From positions 10,448-74,447 of the forward strand of contig JAYSUJ010000022.1 in assembly GCA_043719155.1 (NCBI GenBank): a stretch of DNA of 64,000 bases, written 5' to 3'. Below, piece by piece: positions 44,567 to 52,268 of the stretch (positions within the stretch are counted from its first letter, which is position 1; each line of letters begins with the position of its first letter). Origin of the DNA: a bacterium. GTDB lineage: Bacteria; Patescibacteriota; Minisyncoccia; Phycocordibacterales; UBA5272. Made by a program: the position numbers and the translations under genes. Under the pieces are notes generated by a model that saw only the letters and a list, made by a program, of their open reading frames with translations, had not been told where the DNA came from and did no database searches.

Positions 44567-46159
44567 TTAAATAGGTAAGTTCTTTGGTGGATCGGCTTTT
44601 ACAGACTGGACACGACTTTGTGAGTTTCCAAAAGCTTTGCCAGGAAAATGCCAAAGGGTCACAAGTTCTTCCATGTTTAAAATAACAAAGTTCTCTTTCC
44701 TAATAGGTAGATGCCCTACACCTGTAAAATACTCTTTAACTTCTCCCCACTGAACCATAGCCCAATCCCAACTTTTACCTTTTCTCCATCTAGTCCAAAT
44801 AGTTTTTATTCCGTCCCAATTTCCAGCCTCCATACCTTCAAAGTCATACAGGCCTGCACGAAGTTTAAAAAGCATCCATGTCCAAGATCTTGTTCCCTCT
44901 GATCTAGCTCCAGTTGGATCTAGAAAAGGTGTATCTGTATCGATTGTAACTGTTTCAAACTTAAATTCATTGTAACCAGGTTTACCAAAACTCTTCATTG
45001 CACTAACCACAGAGAAAACACCTTTGTTCAAATTAAAATCTTTTTTTTCTTTTACATGGTAAAACATTCTTAGTACACAATCAAAAGCAGGTTTCTCAAT
45101 ATTTCTTTGCAACATTTCTAGTTCAAGTTTGTCAGAAGGTGTAACCTGCATAGCGTTTCGACTTTGCTCTTTAATGTCTCCCACTTTCACTTTTTTACCC
45201 TCCTTTTCTGCTGCCTCAACCTCTGCGTTTGTAAATCTTTTTATTCCTAAAATCTGGTCTATCCTGTTGCTTGTTCTTTTTTTCCATCCTACAATTCCAT
45301 GTCCCTGTGGGCTCTCTGAATCGCTAAGGGGTTCGTCAAGAGTTGGCATAATCAAAATCTGAAAGAAAAAACTCTCACCTTTACCGGCACTAGCCATCGC
45401 CTCCAAGAGAGGTGTAAGTGGGTCTATTTTATATTCCTCTTTAGGATCTCGATCTAGACCATAATCAACATAGGTTTTGATTGGCAAAATATTGTCTTTG
45501 TCCATATTCCATCTACCAACATAAAGATTACCCCCCTTTTTTTGATAATCATATTTTAAGCTATAATCAGGCTTTTCAGTTATCTCTATACCTGGATACT
45601 GCGAAAAAGCATAAGCTTTAAAAATTTCAGCATTTTTAGGCTGCGTCATCACCCAAAAAGTGATATCACCTTCCTGAGAGACAATCTCTAAAGAAGAAGA
45701 CATACGCAAGCTTCCACTGACATACTTCAAAAAAAACTCCTCCCTCATCTTATTTACCCATTTGTAAATAGGGCCGTCATTTTTCATTTGTTTGTGGCCA
45801 TGATTGTCAACTTCCTTGGTTGGCCTAGGAACCAAAATTTTTTTTGGTTTATGTCCTAACCCTTGGTTTAAAGCATTTAAAACAATCTCCATAGCCGCAG
45901 GGTTTTTATTAATTTCTTGGGGAAGTTTAATTTCTAAAAAAACCTTGCTATTATAAAATTTATTTACGAGAGTTTTTACCCTATTCACATGTAGCCACCA
46001 GGACATGACATAATTTGTACCTTTAAAAGTAAAAGCAAAGAGCAGGGCAACGGCAAAAAGATTAAAGGTTAGTGTGTAAAAAAGAACTGTGTCCATAGTT
46101 AAAAACAGTATAGCAGGCAGTTTAAAAAAAACAAACAAAAAAACTTGAAAATCTTTCAA
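44567..46159 (-). CDS. Hypothetical membrane-anchored protein (530 aa, 2 N-terminal TM)
   Basis: No recognisable motif; Trp-rich C-terminal region. Confidence 0.45.
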   Translation of the reverse strand: MKDFQVFLFVFFKLPAILFLTMDTVLFYTLTFNLFAVALLFAFTFKGTNYVMSWWLHVNRVKTLVNKFYNSKVFLEIKLPQEINKNPAAMEIVLNALNQGLGHKPKKILVPRPTKEVDNHGHKQMKNDGPIYKWVNKMREEFFLKYVSGSLRMSSSLEIVSQEGDITFWVMTQPKNAEIFKAYAFSQYPGIEITEKPDYSLKYDYQKKGGNLYVGRWNMDKDNILPIKTYVDYGLDRDPKEEYKIDPLTPLLEAMASAGKGESFFFQILIMPTLDEPLSDSESPQGHGIVGWKKRTSNRIDQILGIKRFTNAEVEAAEKEGKKVKVGDIKEQSRNAMQVTPSDKLELEMLQRNIEKPAFDCVLRMFYHVKEKKDFNLNKGVFSVVSAMKSFGKPGYNEFKFETVTIDTDTPFLDPTGARSEGTRSWTWMLFKLRAGLYDFEGMEAGNWDGIKTIWTRWRKGKSWDWAMVQWGEVKEYFTGVGHLPIRKENFVILNMEELVTLWHFPGKAFGNSQSRVQSVKADPPKNLPI

Positions 46160-46191: not shown

Positions 46192-47283
46192 TTAAACTTT
46201 CTTTACTGAATATTTCCCATCAGTACTTTTATCAAAAAACTTTGGATTTTGTAGGTTCACAACTACGGTATTGTCTTTTACAACTCTCTCTTTTTTAACT
46301 AAATCTATAATATCATTTTTGGAAAGAGGAGTATTGGCACGATTCATCACTTCGGTGATAACATCTCGGACAATACCACCACTATGGCCCCATTCTCTTA
46401 GACCATAAATGCCACGACCAACTAAAACAAAGCGAGTGTCACGGATAAGCTCATTATGACAAGTTGCAACATGGGCTTTTCGCTTGAATTCAACAAAAAT
46501 CTCTTTCGCTACATCTCTAAAGTGCATTGGACGCCCAGACTTTCTTACCACTAAGTATGCGAAATCCTTTATACCACGAGTCTTGATGTTCGGAGAAGTT
46601 TTCTTGCCCCACTCGCCCATTTGGTTTTTACCTAAAGTTTTAGAAAGCGAGAGGTATTTGAAAAGCATCTCTTTAGACTTGTAAACCTCATGCAACTCTT
46701 CTATTTGCTTTGAAAATCTGTCAAGCAACACATCCTCAGCTATCATTTCTTCTTCAGTTATATTTTGATGCAAATTTGAAAGTCCACCATGTACTGTGTC
46801 TTTGATTTTTGAGTCAATTGACCAATGTTTGTTAAAAGTCTCGTCTTCTTTAGTAGATTTAAAATCATCATGAAGTACTAAATAAAAATGTATATGATTT
46901 TGAGTAAGCTTATCTTTTGCAATTTCATCTAAAAAAGTTTCTTCATGCACAACTCCACCAGCATCTTGCATTATTTTTTTAATTTCATCGAAAGATGTAG
47001 ACTCAGCTAAAAAGTTGTCACTTTTCTTGATCATTTTCAAAGCAAAATTCTCTATCTGTCTTACTCGCTCACGAGTGATGCCATATTTCTTACCAATACT
47101 TTCCAATGTTTTTCGGTCACCAAGCTCACTTAGTCCAAAACGCCCGACAACAACTTCTCTTGCTCTTGTGTTAAGTGGAGACAGCAAGTTTTTAGTAGTT
47201 TTTTTCGGAGAAAATGTGATTTTGCTTTTCATATTTTTTATTTTTCTTATAAACATTATATCACAATTTGACAAAGTTAGCAA
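46192..47283 (-). CDS. Sigma-70 region-4-like HTH protein with C-terminal HARE-HTH-like winged helix
   Basis: N-terminal LSPLNTRAREVVVGRFGL..TLESIGKKYGITRERVRQIENFALKMI; C-terminal ..YLVVRKSGRPMHFRDVAKEI..RFVLVGRGIYGLREWG resembling RNAP delta N-domain. Confidence 0.6.
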   Translation of the reverse strand: MLTLSNCDIMFIRKIKNMKSKITFSPKKTTKNLLSPLNTRAREVVVGRFGLSELGDRKTLESIGKKYGITRERVRQIENFALKMIKKSDNFLAESTSFDEIKKIMQDAGGVVHEETFLDEIAKDKLTQNHIHFYLVLHDDFKSTKEDETFNKHWSIDSKIKDTVHGGLSNLHQNITEEEMIAEDVLLDRFSKQIEELHEVYKSKEMLFKYLSLSKTLGKNQMGEWGKKTSPNIKTRGIKDFAYLVVRKSGRPMHFRDVAKEIFVEFKRKAHVATCHNELIRDTRFVLVGRGIYGLREWGHSGGIVRDVITEVMNRANTPLSKNDIIDLVKKERVVKDNTVVVNLQNPKFFDKSTDGKYSVKKV

Positions 47284-47322: not shown

Positions 47323-50244
47323 CTAGAGTACTATATTTACAATCTTGTTTTTAACTACAATAATTTTTTTAGGAGCAACTTCACCTACCCATTTTTTGTA
47401 ATTTTCCAGATCTTTCGCCAGCTTTATCACTTCATCATCGCTTAAATTTACAGCACAAGCAAAAGAGTCTCGCAACTTTCCATTAACTTGAAATGCAATG
47501 TTGGTAGTATTGGCAACTATTTTAGTTGCGTCAAACTTTGGCCAAGAAGTTTTGTGTATAGAATAGTTTGTATTAGATAGACTTTCCCAAATCTCTTCAG
47601 TAAAAAATGGACAGATAGGTGTTAAAAGTTTGAGAAGAGTCTTGTAATCTTCTAAATTAATTTTCTGACTTTTGGTTTTGTCTACGGCATTTGTAAAAAT
47701 CATCAGTTGAGCTATGGCAGTGTTAAACTGCAACTTTTCATAATCCTCTTCACACTTTTTAATAGTTTGATTCAACACTGTTTCTATGTTTTCGTCTTTT
47801 ATATCTACTTCATTTATTTTGTATTGCAAATCCCAAACTCTCTCTATAAATCTTCTTGGACCTACTATAGCCTTTGAGTTCCAATTTGAAGAGTCGTGGT
47901 ATGGGCCTGTAAAGGCCAAATAAAGCCTTAAAGTATCAGCCCCAAATTGTCTTGCTACGTCGTCTGGGTTGATGACATTTCCATATCGTTTAGACATCTT
48001 TCGCCCATCTTCTCCCATAATTAAGCCTACAGCTTCTAGTCTCTTAAATGGCTCTTTTGTGGTCAGTACATTTTTGTCAAATAAAAACAGGTTCCAAAAA
48101 CGACCATATATCAAATGTCTTGTGGCATGCTCTAAGCCTCCTAAATAAATATCTACATCACCCCAATATTTTTCCTCAACACTGCCAACCAAAAAGTTTT
48201 CATTGTTTGGGTCCATGTAGCGCAACCAATACCAACTACTTCCTGCCCATTGCGGCATAGTGTTTGTTTCTCTTTTAAATAATTCCCCCTTTAGGTCACT
48301 TACAAATTCCCCACTTTCATTTATAAAACCATAAACGTCTGTGAATTCTTTAATATTTGCAAGCGGTGACTCGCCGTCACCTGTTGGCTCATAGCTTTCT
48401 ACTTCAGGTAAAAATACAGGCAATTCAGTATCTGCAACAAGATAATTTTTCTTTACTTCGTTTCCAATACTGTCTTTCTCAATTCTAGAAACAATCGGAA
48501 AAGGTTCACCCCAATATCTTTGTCTGGCAAAAACCCAATCTCGTAATTTGTACTTTGTTACCATTTTTCCACCTACAAAATCAACAATTTTTCTGCCAGC
48601 CTCTTCACTTTTTTGTCCATCAAATTTTCCAGAATTAACTAAAATGCCATTTTCCGTAAATAGTTTACCATTTAAATATTCGTCGAAATAAAATTTATGA
48701 TGTTTGGTAAATTTTAATGAAGTTAAAATTTCTTCTTTGGTTTTCCAGTCACCAATTTTAGTTCTCTCATCTACAATTTCTCCACGCTCATCATTTTCTA
48801 AAATAACTTCAAAAATCGCATCGTGACAAAGCTCTTCAACAACTTTTCTTGGTTTGTACCCTCTACTAAAAGCATTTTCAAAAATAGTTTTAACGGACTT
48901 AATATTTTTGTATCCTGTTTCTTCTGTAACCTCTCTTCTTACAGCATCGTCAGCACTTTCTCCTGTCTCTAGGCTGCCACCCGCCATTCCCTCTTCCGCC
49001 CCAAAGTCTATTACATAATACTTTTCCTCTGACCAGTGTTTTACTATAGCTGTGGCAGCTTTAAATTCACGAATGTTTTCTTCACTTTTTGGCGTACTTG
49101 GTCCATCCATAAGTGTAAAAGGTGCTACTACTTGTTTTTTTTCAATCCCAAACATATTTGCGAACTCGGCGTCTCTTTCGTCATGTGCTGGCACAGCCAT
49201 TATTGCCCCTGCACCGTAACTTGCCAAAACATAGTCGGCAATATAAACTGGAACTTGTTTTTGGTTGGTTGGGTTTATAGCAACTACACCTTCTAATTTC
49301 ACCCCAGTTTTTTCACGGCCTTCTGCACCTCTTTCAATTTCAGTTTTATCCTTAGCTCCTAAAATATACTTTTCAACCTCAATGCTATTTGAAATTAAAT
49401 TTTTTTCCAAGTATTCTTTTACAAGTTTATGTTCTGGTGCAAATACACAGTAAGTACAGCCAAATAATGTGTCAGGACGTGTGGTAAAAATTGTAAATTT
49501 GTTTTTTACTTCTCCACAAACTAAGTCAAAAACTATTTCCGCCCCCTCACTTTTTCCTATCCAGTTTCGCTGCATCTCTTTAATACTTTCTTTCCACTCC
49601 AAATTGTCCACCCCACTTAAAAGCTGCTCTGCATAGTCGGTGATGCGTATCACCCATTGTCTAATAGGTTTTTTTTCAACTACACTACTGCAACGCTCAC
49701 ACTTACCATCTTCTAAGTCCTCATTTGCTAGACCAGTTTTACAGCTTGGACACCAATTTATCGGCTCAAAGCTCTCATAACAAAGTCCTGCTTTGAAAAG
49801 CTGTTTAAAAATCCATTGCGTCCATTTATAAAATTTAGGATCTGTAGTATTAACAGTTCTGTCCCAGTCGTAAGAGAGTCCCAACATTTTCATTTGTTTC
49901 TCGAAATTGTCAGTATTTTTTTTAGTAGAGATTTTTGGATTTATTTTATTTTTAATAGCAAATTGTTCTGCAGGTAAACCAAAAGCATCCCAACCTGTAG
50001 CATGCAAAACGTTATACCCTTGCATTCTTTTTAGACGCGAATAAATATCTGAAGCTGAGAAAATTTTAGCGTGCCCAGCATGCAAACCCTCGCCACTTGG
50101 ATAAGGAAACATGTCTAAAACATGCATCTTTTTTTTACTTAAATCTAACTCAGTTTTGTACAACTTAGCTTCTTCCCATTTTTGGGCCCATTTAGCTTCA
50201 ATATCTTTAGGACTATAGAGTTTTTTAAGATTGTTTTGTGACAT
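47323..50244 (-). CDS. leuS: Leucyl-tRNA synthetase with inserted Nudix hydrolase domain
   Basis: HAGH (PYPSGEGLHAGH), editing CP1 TTRPDT, KMSKR; 973 aa; residues ~378-527 form Nudix fold with canonical Nudix box. Confidence 0.95.
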   Translation of the reverse strand: MSQNNLKKLYSPKDIEAKWAQKWEEAKLYKTELDLSKKKMHVLDMFPYPSGEGLHAGHAKIFSASDIYSRLKRMQGYNVLHATGWDAFGLPAEQFAIKNKINPKISTKKNTDNFEKQMKMLGLSYDWDRTVNTTDPKFYKWTQWIFKQLFKAGLCYESFEPINWCPSCKTGLANEDLEDGKCERCSSVVEKKPIRQWVIRITDYAEQLLSGVDNLEWKESIKEMQRNWIGKSEGAEIVFDLVCGEVKNKFTIFTTRPDTLFGCTYCVFAPEHKLVKEYLEKNLISNSIEVEKYILGAKDKTEIERGAEGREKTGVKLEGVVAINPTNQKQVPVYIADYVLASYGAGAIMAVPAHDERDAEFANMFGIEKKQVVAPFTLMDGPSTPKSEENIREFKAATAIVKHWSEEKYYVIDFGAEEGMAGGSLETGESADDAVRREVTEETGYKNIKSVKTIFENAFSRGYKPRKVVEELCHDAIFEVILENDERGEIVDERTKIGDWKTKEEILTSLKFTKHHKFYFDEYLNGKLFTENGILVNSGKFDGQKSEEAGRKIVDFVGGKMVTKYKLRDWVFARQRYWGEPFPIVSRIEKDSIGNEVKKNYLVADTELPVFLPEVESYEPTGDGESPLANIKEFTDVYGFINESGEFVSDLKGELFKRETNTMPQWAGSSWYWLRYMDPNNENFLVGSVEEKYWGDVDIYLGGLEHATRHLIYGRFWNLFLFDKNVLTTKEPFKRLEAVGLIMGEDGRKMSKRYGNVINPDDVARQFGADTLRLYLAFTGPYHDSSNWNSKAIVGPRRFIERVWDLQYKINEVDIKDENIETVLNQTIKKCEEDYEKLQFNTAIAQLMIFTNAVDKTKSQKINLEDYKTLLKLLTPICPFFTEEIWESLSNTNYSIHKTSWPKFDATKIVANTTNIAFQVNGKLRDSFACAVNLSDDEVIKLAKDLENYKKWVGEVAPKKIIVVKNKIVNIVL

Positions 50245-50880: not shown

Positions 50881-50989
50881 TTTTGTTTTTTAAATGATTT
50901 AGTGTAAAATGTCAATACTTGTGGTAAATCTATCACAAAGTGATTTACGCTTTGTCGGTAACCCAGATAAAACGCTAAAGGAGACATCC

Positions 50990-51370
50990 GTGTCAAACTA
51001 TGCTTTCTATTTACTGGTTCTGCTTGGTTTGTGCCACTGGCTTGGTGACTTTTCACATCTGACTACAAAATGGATGCAGGAAGCCAAGCGTTACGGACAT
51101 CCGTTCGAACCCATCCTTGCACACGCATGTGCGCACGGAGGCTTGATGTGTCTCGCACTGCAACTAAGCAGTGCAAGTCAAACCAGGATACTATGGACTT
51201 GTTTGTTTCAAGTGTTGATGCACTTTTGCATCGACATGACAAAAGGCGCGCTAAATGGGCTGTACCCCAGCTTGGAAAACCAAAGAGAGAAACCATATTG
51301 GTATATCTTTGGCTTCGACCAGTTTTTGCACTTCTTTACTATCTTGGTCATGGTTAAAGCCCTAACCTGA
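50990..51370 (+). CDS. Hypothetical polytopic membrane protein with conserved His/Cys residues (126 aa; ORF-track ATG start 50909)
   Basis: RBS AAGGAGA 5 nt before GTG 50990; MSNYAFYLLVLLGLCHWLGDFSHL..HACAHGG..HFCID; GC-elevated. Confidence 0.45.
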   Translation: MSNYAFYLLVLLGLCHWLGDFSHLTTKWMQEAKRYGHPFEPILAHACAHGGLMCLALQLSSASQTRILWTCLFQVLMHFCIDMTKGALNGLYPSLENQREKPYWYIFGFDQFLHFFTILVMVKALT

Positions 51371-51387
51371 TTTGAAGAAGGGGTGTA

Positions 51388-51420
51388 AGTGGTCGGCAAC
51401 GCAAGTTGCCGACCTTTTTA
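51388..51420 (+). terminator. Intrinsic terminator, copy 1 of duplicated hairpin
   Basis: gtggtcggcaac-gcaa-gttgccgacc + TTTTTA. Confidence 0.65.
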
Positions 51421-51432
51421 TATTTCTTTTTT

Positions 51433-51461
51433 TTGCATTTTCAAATCATTTCAGTTAAAAT
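51433..51461 (+). promoter_or_regulatory. Near-consensus sigma70 promoter for Cys-rich peptide gene
   Basis: TTGCAT (51433-51438) - 17 nt - TAAAAT (51456-51461). Confidence 0.55.
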
Positions 51462-51510
51462 GTAAAAGCAGGAAAAAACTGCAAAACAGAAATGCATTAG
51501 GAGAGTAAAA

Positions 51511-51687
51511 GTGGACACCACCAGTACACCCTCAACCAAATTCTGCATCGGAGACCCAGGCGACGAATGCGACTCAAAGAGTTGTTCCTGCTGCAAAAAG
51601 AGCAGCAAGAAAAGCCAAACGAAGGAACTTCAAAGCCAGGGCGACAACCTAACCAAATTTGTCGTTCTATCTTTTGCAAAAAGATAA
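51511..51687 (+). CDS. Cys-rich small peptide (58 aa, GTG start), not in ORF track
   Basis: RBS AGGAGAG 5 nt before GTG; VDTTSTPSTKFCIGDPGDECDSKSCSCCKKSSKKSQTKELQSQGDNLTKFVVLSFAKR; own promoter and terminator. Confidence 0.4.
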   Translation: MDTTSTPSTKFCIGDPGDECDSKSCSCCKKSSKKSQTKELQSQGDNLTKFVVLSFAKR

Positions 51688-51706
51688 ACGCAGAACATTG
51701 AATAGT

Positions 51707-51747
51707 GAGTGTGTAAGTCGACCACAAGTCGCTTTCACACTTTTTTT
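51707..51747 (+). terminator. Intrinsic terminator after Cys-rich peptide gene
   Basis: Imperfect GC stem gtgtgtaagtcgac..gtcgctttcacac followed by TTTTTTT. Confidence 0.5.
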
Positions 51748-51761
51748 ATTTAAATCTAAAT

Positions 51762-51789
51762 TTGACTTTTTATAAATTTATAGTAAAAT
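51762..51789 (+). promoter_or_regulatory. Near-consensus sigma70 promoter for 51845 gene
   Basis: TTGACT-16 nt-TAAAAT. Confidence 0.55.
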
Positions 51790-51844
51790 ACTAGGACTCA
51801 TACGGCATCCGCTGTAGTGAGAATCCTAGAGAAGGAAACTGCCT

Positions 51845-52162
51845 ATGGCAGACCAAGACAAAGAGCTCGACGAAATCCTGGCAAAACTCAAGAGCGCCGG
51901 AATCGGAGTCTCCGTCATGCAAGGATGGGACGTCGCCAAGTTGTTGTCCGAAGTAACTCGCGAGGACAACAACCAGTTCCCTCCGGAACTGACGGCAAAA
52001 GCTGCTGGTATGCGCGACGCCTTCTTCCAAGAATACGAAGTTGTCGTAAAGGCCCTAGCGGTCAAACACGGCATTGATCTCCTTGATGGAAATCTCGAGA
52101 TCGCCATCGATATGGTTGAGCTCGCCAAGGCCGGCAAGTCGCAAGGTGAGCCGGCAGCCTGA
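51845..52162 (+). CDS. Hypothetical acidic soluble protein (105 aa), GC-elevated
   Basis: RBS GAAGGAAA before ATG; MADQDKELDEILAKLKSAGIGVSVMQGWDVAKLLSEV..; terminator copy 2 follows. Confidence 0.45.
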   Translation: MADQDKELDEILAKLKSAGIGVSVMQGWDVAKLLSEVTREDNNQFPPELTAKAAGMRDAFFQEYEVVVKALAVKHGIDLLDGNLEIAIDMVELAKAGKSQGEPAA

Positions 52163-52184
52163 TAGCTCTCAGGCAACTCTAGAA

Positions 52185-52216
52185 AAAGTAGGTCGGCAAC
52201 GCAAGTTGCCGACCTT
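52185..52216 (+). terminator. Intrinsic terminator, copy 2 of duplicated hairpin
   Basis: gtaggtcggcaac-gcaa-gttgccgacc + TTTTAT; 27/28 nt identical to 51388-51415. Confidence 0.65.
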
Positions 52217-52268
52217 TTATCTTTTTCTTTATCTTTCTTTAAATATTTCAAAATATATTTATTTAAAA

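Follow-up and report, generated by a model that had tools for sequence, protein, structure and literature searches.

The leuS gene of the patescibacterial genome fragment analyzed here encodes a leucyl-tRNA synthetase (LeuRS) with a complete Nudix domain inserted into its CP1 editing domain. The window, i.e. the whole stretch of DNA under study, comprises 64,000 nucleotides. The gene resides on its minus strand at 47323..50244, stop codon included, as do all features described below, and it was assigned on the basis of its open reading frame, the NCBIfam model TIGR00396 and a predicted AF2 structure. The inserted domain spans residues 374–527 (154 aa; 48664..49125) of the 973-residue bacterial-type protein. 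The evidence as a whole indicates that a working bacterial LeuRS here probably carries, tethered via a CP1 loop, an autonomous and dispensable enzyme that is predicted to act as a small-nucleotide pyrophosphatase. Few enzymes are as strongly conserved as the aminoacyl-tRNA synthetases, in bacteria these rarely bear added catalytic domains, and CP1 of LeuRS has been studied intensively as a drug target.

The body of the enzyme is that of an ordinary LeuRS. The equivalog model TIGR00396 (leuS_bact) matches with 882.9 bits at a cutoff of 548.4, in two stretches that flank the insert, and the AF2 model of the complete protein (pLDDT 89.9) can be superposed on the LeuRS structures from E. coli (4AQ7/4ARC) and Thermus thermophilus (1H3N/2BYT/2BTE), with which it shares family and fold, at TMt values of 0.81–0.83. 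Thermus LeuRS and the window protein are related with a phmmer E value of 2e-175, and the top match in a GTDB scan with the latter is 50% identical. Both class I signatures of the synthetic site are present and conserved across the LeuRS family alignment: the HIGH motif (HAGH, residues 55–58; 50071..50082), of which H55, G57 and H58 are invariant in 99 sequences, and the KMSKS motif (KMSKR, residues 749–753; 47986..48000), identified by its position and the same alignment. The editing site is equally intact. PF13603 detects the N-terminal part of CP1 (residues 226–373; 49126..49569) with 186 bits, residues 226–376 matching positions 1–143 of the 185 in the profile. This part contains the T-rich region (TTRPDT, residues 254–259; 49468-49485) as well as the sequence AHDERD (residues 353–358; 49171-49188) with the editing aspartate; T255, H354, D355, R357 and D358 are invariant in the 99 sequences. 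The leucine-specific domain (Tth ~580–637) is absent, since query residues 744 and 750 align with Tth 579 and 638 and KMSKR thus follows almost directly after residue 744. Rfam and tRNA scans of 46–53 kb of the window gave no match, and the window holds no second aminoacyl-tRNA synthetase that could serve as a control.

It had originally been predicted that the insertion follows CP1. In fact, it lies within this domain. The PF13603 match ends at residue 376, at position 143 of the 185 in the profile, and in the alignment with Thermus LeuRS the 154 residues take the place of a 13-residue loop (Tth 363–375). Query residue 528 pairs with Tth 376, and the alignment then runs on past the RDW motif through the C-terminal part of CP1 (residues 528–569, LFTENGILVNSGKFDG ... 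to KYKLRDW; 48538..48663).

That the insert is a complete Nudix domain in an otherwise normal LeuRS, as put forward in the original prediction, is borne out by profile, motif and fold alike. PF00293 scores 35.8 bits with the whole protein and 39.9 bits with the insert alone, at a gathering score of 21.1. A regular-expression search finds the Nudix box GX5EX7REUXEEXGU exactly where it had been located, at residues 423–445 (GSLETGESADDAVRREVTEETGY; 48910..48978), with every motif residue in place (G423, E429, R437, E438, E441, E442 and G444). The LeuRS model contains the whole Nudix fold, and both insert junctions are modelled confidently. A linker (374–390) leads into strands 391–402, 408–413 and 421–424, the Nudix helix (431–443), strands 448–464, 469–482 and 498–502 and, finally, helices 503–508 and 514–525. 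The resulting alpha/beta/alpha sandwich characteristic of the Nudix superfamily spans the entire insert, and the Nudix helix bears the REVTEE segment in the loop-helix-loop setting of the box, including the three glutamates predicted to bind metal (E438, E441 and E442). G423 and these three glutamates are invariant in an alignment of 38 inserts; across the insert family the glutamates are invariant or nearly so, and 197 of 270 domain copies (73%) possess a fully canonical box. This is the pattern expected from selection for catalysis. The module in the CP1 surface loop is predicted to fold separately and is most likely catalytically active.

The Nudix-bearing LeuRS is common in Patescibacteria. 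Relatives were recovered by full-length searches and an insert profile, and a survey of this kind, already suggested with the original prediction, located a Nudix domain at the same CP1 site in 98 of the 120 closest LeuRS relatives, all from patescibacterial/paceibacterial MAGs, so that the layout is the majority state among them. It is shared by about 100 independent assemblies (NCBI, JGI, ENA and Logan) and one complete chromosome. One to three Nudix copies, some of them in tandem, occur per protein at four sites overall, and some relatives also bear Ham1, HAD or serine-hydrolase domains. When the insert alone served as a word-index query no homologues were retrieved, because the Nudix subtype of the window (SRGYKxRK..EELCHD), which has no close relatives there, is too divergent. 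The cassette is associated exclusively with LeuRS. Free-standing Nudix paralogues of about 160 residues exist (e.g. P0143, P0145, P0177 and P0197) and reach some 155–178 bits with the insert profile, level with many LeuRS inserts; they have the box in common with the inserts, as well as a 'P.F..' segment resembling the linker at the N terminus but, unlike these, are separate genes, which may have donated the cassette or arisen by its fission. No Nudix gene is present within 4 kb on either side of 19 leuS loci lacking the insertion (among L053–L071 and L073–L074); L070, in the same set, shows a partial Nudix match only.

Gain, loss, duplication and exchange all affect the module as a whole, in the way of a cassette. 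In two syntenic strains whose flanking DNA is 96–98% identical, the sole difference is the in-frame presence or absence of the cassette, and the LeuRS proteins P0037 and P0050 form a natural pair with and without Nudix domain at 97% identity; P0003 and P0011 are a further natural allele pair. The domain can therefore not be an integral proofreading step. Between genus-level relatives, the LeuRS core can be 89% identical while the Nudix versions it carries are non-homologous, with 21% identity, and core identity correlates only weakly with cassette identity (r = 0.35).

Neither NCBIfam models nor fold neighbours assign the insert to a Nudix subfamily. Scores for MutT 8-oxo-dGTPase (TIGR00586; 18.9–22.6 bits, cutoff 97.9) and the NudI nucleoside triphosphatase (NF012016; 15.4–18.5 bits, cutoff 95) stay below their cutoffs, and NudI is the second-best fold neighbour of the insert. 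With curated RppH models (cutoffs 116–259) the window insert scores 15–17 bits and the best family member 39.8 bits at a cutoff of 118. A tyrosine about 16–18 residues after the box is reportedly a marker of the Ap4A/ApnA-RppH (NudH) subfamily. Y463 is situated 18 residues past Y445; in the insert family an aromatic residue (Y/F/H) is common in this column or the adjoining one, and such a residue is not specific to that subfamily. Compared with small single-domain Nudix enzymes such as E. faecalis 2AZW (function unknown), NudI/YfaO (3OGA, 6DT3), NudJ/YmfB (3DKU), MutT, NUDT15 and the Aquifex Ap4A hydrolase 3I7U, the insert is only 13–22% identical, comes near no equivalog cutoff and is internal to another enzyme, both termini being joined.

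On the reading that we favour, the module by itself would cleave a small nucleoside-diphosphate-X compound rather than tRNA or Leu-AMP and would be accessory to aminoacylation, which would not depend on it; as a part of LeuRS, the module would have its dosage and location tied to those of the synthetase. Fold neighbours, the acidity of the domain and the fact that adjacent loops of related LeuRS hold HAD domains and ITPase-type Ham1 domains lead us to guess at dinucleoside polyphosphates such as Ap4A as substrates or, alternatively, at non-canonical or excess NTPs in a 'house-cleaning' role. Synthetases form Ap4A when ATP attacks the enzyme-bound adenylate. Several points speak against this explanation. 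LeuRS is only a weak Ap4A producer among synthetases, and no equivalog threshold (MutT, NudI, RppH) is approached. A plain house-cleaning enzyme would not obviously be expected to show fast cassette turnover or to occur two or three times in one protein, one subclade has changed box residues (the first Glu to Gln, the Arg to A/M/T/Q), and a purely independent activity leaves the exclusive association with LeuRS unexplained.

These features could instead reflect conflict, a reading that we regard as doubtful. Here, the cassette would be an accessory that neutralises a nucleotide-type inhibitor, a toxin product or a signal hitting LeuRS, tRNA-Leu or the nucleotide pool, for example a nucleotide that is toxic or serves as a signal, or an antibiotic that mimics the adenylate and contains a pyrophosphate-like bond; an arms race would diversify the cassette, with CP1 as its docking platform. 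Presence or absence at strain level, non-homologous replacement between close relatives together with the weak identity correlation, copy numbers of one to three spread over four sites, the fact that the association is with LeuRS exclusively and the occupation of the same loops by other hydrolase types are all consistent with this idea. However, the best match among the PADLOC-DB models for anti-phage defence, PDC-S07, is not significant (17.9 bits, E 4.5e-4) and covers the Nudix box alone, leuS is flanked by conserved housekeeping genes without any adjoining defence or toxin gene, and the GC content of the cassette equals that of the rest of the gene. In addition, we know of no LeuRS inhibitor that is a Nudix substrate. 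In its broadest and likewise rather unlikely form, the idea would make patescibacterial LeuRS a dedicated docking platform for fast-exchanged nucleotide-hydrolase cassettes (one to three Nudix domains distributed over four loops, alongside domains of the Ham1, HAD and serine-hydrolase types), with strain-level turnover as conflict or niche adaptation; for example, a nucleotide poison of LeuRS or tRNA-Leu, or a host or phage nucleotide signal, would be destroyed where it acts.

It appears quite unlikely that the domain is directed at RNA and, like RppH, NudC and NUDT12, takes a 5' pyrophosphate or NAD-type cap off tRNA-Leu or some other RNA, with LeuRS as the tRNA-binding platform. When LeuRS is in complex with tRNA, CP1 is close to the acceptor end, the Foldseek neighbours of the insert include NUDT12, NudC and RppH, and RppH models are the weak top NCBIfam matches of majority-type inserts and free-standing members. 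Nevertheless, these scores do not exceed 40 bits and remain far below the cutoffs, and the acidity of the inserts (median net charge −7, −9 in the window) argues against RNA binding. Furthermore, near-identical strains dispense with the domain, and the free-standing paralogues lack an RNA-binding partner. Equally improbable is a non-catalytic module, in which the Nudix fold would serve as a ligand sensor or as a structural or interaction domain modulating editing or aminoacylation, by analogy with the NrtR-type Nudix domains through which transcription factors sense ligands. The perfect box in the window, the (near-)invariant glutamates E438, E441 and E442 and the predominance of canonical boxes (73% of copies) stand against it.

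It is very unlikely that the domain provides an additional proofreading site at which misactivated aminoacyl-adenylates are hydrolysed after their release from the synthetic site, even though it sits within the editing domain of an adenylate-making enzyme and is found exclusively with LeuRS. Nudix enzymes cut pyrophosphate bonds, whereas aminoacyl-adenylates are acyl-phosphate anhydrides lacking such a bond, which makes the reaction chemically unlikely; the enzymes known to hydrolyse them are HIT-family proteins, not Nudix. Moreover, the hydrolytic site of CP1 is intact, the domain is missing from strains whose cores are 97% identical, and paralogues stand free of LeuRS. Finally, an assembly chimera, a concern raised with the original prediction, or a mis-called ORF fusing a Nudix gene to leuS found no supporting evidence and is rejected in view of the continuous reading frame, equal GC inside and outside the insert, confident AF2 modelling across the junctions, the architecture shared by about 100 independent assemblies and a complete chromosome, and the syntenic strain comparison.

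The architecture had been considered undescribed. This holds for the literature searched, in which combining Nudix with LeuRS, aaRS, CPR, Parcubacteria or Patescibacteria revealed no description of it (PMC7159879, the only paper in which all the terms occur, uses them in unrelated contexts). The layout is not peculiar to this genome, being the majority state in close relatives, and public protein sets already carry automatic PF00293 annotations on patescibacterial LeuRS. A parallel is ileS_w_GNAT (NCBIfam NF040702), an IleRS that bears a GNAT domain and is likewise a class Ia synthetase joined to an unrelated enzymatic domain. There, domain, host and position are different; the LeuRS Nudix domain is a CP1-loop insert present in up to three copies and exchanged as a cassette.

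A large part of the Patescibacteria thus harbours a whole second predicted enzyme inside CP1, an unusual case of modular, recombining variation within an essential housekeeping gene. Were the docking-platform idea true, this would be the first variable 'accessory locus' inside an essential translation enzyme. Natural pairs of LeuRS with and without Nudix domain such as P0037/P0050 allow a clean biochemical comparison. The finding provides a lead on nucleotide clean-up or Ap4A turnover organised around translation in very small genomes. If the substrate is not linked to LeuRS chemistry, the fusion would be striking but benign; if it is, synthetases would have gained a novel type of functional coupling.

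The host of the Nudix insert, encoded by leuS (47323..50244, minus strand), is a 973-aa leucyl-tRNA synthetase (LeuRS) in a single long open reading frame. It scores as a bacterial-type enzyme (NCBIfam TIGR00396, 882.9 bits; cutoff 548.4), is matched by the Pfam models for the class-I catalytic, LeuRS editing and anticodon-binding domains, and finds T. thermophilus LeuRS in the PDB (phmmer, E = 2e-175). The signature elements HAGH (residues 55-58) and KMSKR (749-753) are present, as are the T-rich editing segment TTRPDT (254-259) and AHDERD (353-358), which carries the editing aspartates; T255, H354, D355, R357 and D358 are invariant in an alignment of 99 family members. The E. coli and Thermus LeuRS-tRNA complexes superimpose on the full-length model with TMt values of 0.81-0.83. 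Judged from sequence and model, the LeuRS body outside the insert looks fully functional. In contrast to the Thermus and E. coli enzymes, it lacks the leucine-specific domain of about 58 aa before KMSKS, because query residues 744 to 750 pair with Thermus 579 to 638 (site of the missing domain: residues 744-753, window 47986-48015). The family consensus suggests that this domain is missing family-wide.

The insert comprises 154 residues (374-527, nt 48664-49125) in place of 13 in the Thermus protein, with Thermus 362 pairing with query 373 and Thermus 376 with query 528. The original prediction located it correctly at 48664-49113, with the Nudix box at residues 423-445 (nt 48910-48978), but erred in placing it after the CP1 editing domain. 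It lies inside CP1: the Pfam editing-domain match is split, residues 226-376 covering only profile positions 1-143 of 185, and the alignment to Thermus, whose editing domain is commonly delimited as residues 224-417, restarts at Thermus residue 376 and continues past the RLRDW motif. The Nudix domain thus takes the place of a short CP1 loop, which we assume to be surface exposed.

PF00293 matches the whole protein with 35.8 bits and the isolated insert with 39.9 bits (gathering score 21.1), and the box GSLETGESADDAVRREVTEETGY agrees with GX5EX7REUXEEXGU at all defined positions, as had been claimed. AlphaFold, given 99 sequences, modelled the full-length protein with a pLDDT of 89.9 and a pTM of 0.80, and ten-residue blocks of the insert average 87-97; modelled separately, the insert attains a pLDDT of 94.5 and adopts the expected topology of three strands, Nudix helix, long hairpins and two C-terminal helices. 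Foldseek searches of the PDB with the insert returned Nudix enzymes only, headed by NudI/YfaO (3oga, TMt 0.82) and followed by 6dt3, 2azw, NUDT12, NUDT15, NudJ, the Ap4A hydrolase 3i7u and RppH, and a profile of 38 inserts matched 171 Nudix sequences in the PDB, with 2azw at the top (E 6e-13 over its full length). Motif and predicted fold together identify the insert as a Nudix domain that is complete, folds independently and retains its motif intact.

An assembly chimera was considered and rejected: GC content is equal inside (0.355) and outside (0.358) the insert and a Nudix domain occupies the same site in 98 relatives. The window protein itself is on record, in identical form, in the protein collection, where it comes from a 76-kb contig (NCBI and Logan sources). 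PF00293 is pre-annotated in about 100 of the 120 best LeuRS relatives, and in 98 of these 120 the alignment places an insert of 122-165 aa exactly at the window site; the named relatives among them are labelled Paceibacterota, Parcubacteria or Patescibacteria. Metagenome-assembled genomes with Nudix-bearing LeuRS (GTDB species representatives) bear the labels Moraniibacteriota, Paceibacterota, Nomura-, Taylor-, Kaiser- and Sungii-bacteria and Minisyncoccia, and the complete Kaiserbacteria chromosome CP066682.1 likewise encodes such an enzyme. An insert-profile HMM run against 1.84 billion cluster representatives yielded 183 clusters at E<=1e-30, and among the top 149 representatives the only hosts detected were LeuRS and LeuRS fragments.

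The Nudix module behaves as a cassette that is dispensable and exchangeable among close relatives, a conclusion drawn mainly from DNA comparisons and from the statistics of core and cassette identity. The 962-aa LeuRS P0037 has the Nudix domain and the 813-aa P0050 lacks it; their protein identity is 97.5% on one side of the site and 96.3% on the other. Their contigs are fully syntenic, about 15 neighbours being equal in gene length, and the DNA flanking the cassette shows identities of 98.3% and 96.3%; the sole difference at the locus is at the cassette itself, where P0037 has 502 nt and P0050 has 55 nt, in frame. Two different samples gave identical assemblies of the Nudix-less allele. Further presence/absence pairs are P0003/P0011 (91-92%) and P0032/P0082 (93-97%), and Nudix-less LeuRS are dispersed across a quick neighbour-joining tree of the core. 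Modules are also swapped: the cores of P0003 and P0009 are 88.9% identical, their Nudix modules 21%, and the DNA of the two loci, about 80% identical through flanks and leuS, has no detectable similarity over the cassette of ~480-500 nt. Conversely, modules 80% identical reside in cores 60% identical (P0075/P0103), and modules 98% identical in cores 80% identical (P0008/P0009). The correlation between core identity and cassette identity is weak over 4656 pairs (r = 0.35).

Related LeuRS have further members of this Nudix family inserted after the equivalents of residues 214, 246 or 655, or in tandem at 373, with a maximum of three per protein; P0005 and P0104 have a Nudix domain solely at an alternative site. 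Proteins with multiple or alternative sites include P0005, P0019, P0024, P0036, P0048, P0070, P0071, P0101, P0104 and P0122-P0134. The LeuRS loops used by Nudix also house other hydrolases, namely a Ham1/ITPase-like domain (PF01725) in P0043 and P0044 and a HAD domain (PF13419) in P0057, both after residue 246, and a serine hydrolase (PF06821) after residues 599-601 in P0106; P0072 carries a 130-aa insert without Pfam match after residue 601. Free-standing Nudix proteins of the family (~160 aa; P0143, P0145, P0177, P0197, P0207, P0224, P0252 and about 20 more) retain the linker-like N-terminal P.F...NPP segment of the LeuRS inserts and are possible cassette donors or fission products. In addition, stand-alone proteins of 273-304 aa consist of the C-terminal half of LeuRS CP1 with Nudix inserted. 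One of these, from the Bacilli gut genome MGBC127997 (L072, 3824-4738, plus strand), looks like an excised unit of CP1 fragment and Nudix outside LeuRS and Patescibacteria; its editing motif AHD reads AHI and its neighbours, a dehydrogenase and a 5'-3' exonuclease, are unrelated. Similar proteins are P0206, P0209, P0226, P0235 and P0267.

The genes around leuS are conserved housekeeping genes, in the order YchF, nitroreductase, DUF948 protein, leuS, sigma-70 region 4/HARE-HTH protein, 530-aa protein, YceG, RNase T-like exonuclease and MnmA, and none of them points to an operon partner of the Nudix domain. Rfam and tRNA scans of 46-53 kb revealed no RNA genes near leuS. The sigma-70 region 4/HARE-HTH protein (363 aa) and the 530-aa protein, the latter without Pfam match, are encoded directly downstream on the minus strand (46192-47283 and 44567-46159, respectively), and both genes are syntenic in all relatives examined. 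Between the DUF948 and nitroreductase genes, positions 50900-52260 have a GC content of 0.47-0.54 (about 0.30-0.40 around) and contain a DUF3307 reading frame (50909-51370) and a 105-aa frame without Pfam match (51845-52162). This patch is missing from the syntenic place in three relatives (L078, L079, L080), gave no hits in tRNA and Rfam scans and is possibly a small foreign insertion.

The conservation of the box argues for catalysis. Its G, the E of RE, EE and the next G are conserved in at least 90% of the 98 inserts at site 373, and G423, E438, E441 and E442 are invariant in an alignment of 38 sequences. The box is fully canonical in 197 of 270 domain copies (248 proteins), and the E..EE glutamates are retained in all 243 copies with box spacing, about 90% of the total. 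In one subclade the first Glu is replaced by Gln together with Arg by A, M, T or Q, which looks like a paired, covarying substitution rather than decay; P0007, P0045, P0063, P0092, P0110, P0120 and others show this combination with E..EE kept.

The module would act as an autonomous pyrophosphohydrolase on a small nucleotide, since the inserts are acidic (median pI 5.4, net charge -7; window insert pI 5.05, charge -9), small (d)NTP and NDP-X pyrophosphatases are the closest structural matches, and the Ham1 and HAD domains that occur alongside it are nucleotide-directed hydrolases too. None of the curated subfamily models was approached (MutT <=23 bits against 97.9, NudI <=18.5 against 95, RppH <=40 against cutoffs of 116 or more). 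Y463, 18 residues past the box, occupies a marker position of ApnA hydrolases, a match that is not specific. Our best guess, with low confidence as to the substrate, is clean-up of Ap4A/ApnA or of non-canonical NTPs tied to LeuRS. The enzymes known to hydrolyze aminoacyl-adenylates and ApnA belong to the HIT family; in L075 and L076, a Nudix-plus and a Nudix-minus strain, a 127-aa HIT-family protein (PF01230, 4655-5038) is encoded about 1 kb upstream of leuS, and no HIT gene adjoining leuS was seen in the window. Next in rank is a role in conflict, which the dynamics of the cassette suggest, followed by a role directed at RNA ends, although the acidity of the inserts argues against RNA binding, and then by a non-catalytic sensor. 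Least likely is the proofreading of aminoacyl-adenylates originally proposed, because there is no pyrophosphate bond in aa-AMP, CP1 retains an intact site of its own and the domain is missing from near-identical enzymes.

The original prediction also suggested that the architecture had not been described. Full-text literature searches indeed found no description of Nudix anywhere in LeuRS or in the editing domain of any aminoacyl-tRNA synthetase; the sequences are public and carry automatic PF00293 annotation, so that the architecture is, as far as we can tell, known to databases and not to the literature. Both parts, LeuRS and Nudix, belong to known families. What is surprising is the location inside CP1, the multiplicity of the domain, its restriction to LeuRS and the exchange of a cassette at strain level within an essential gene.
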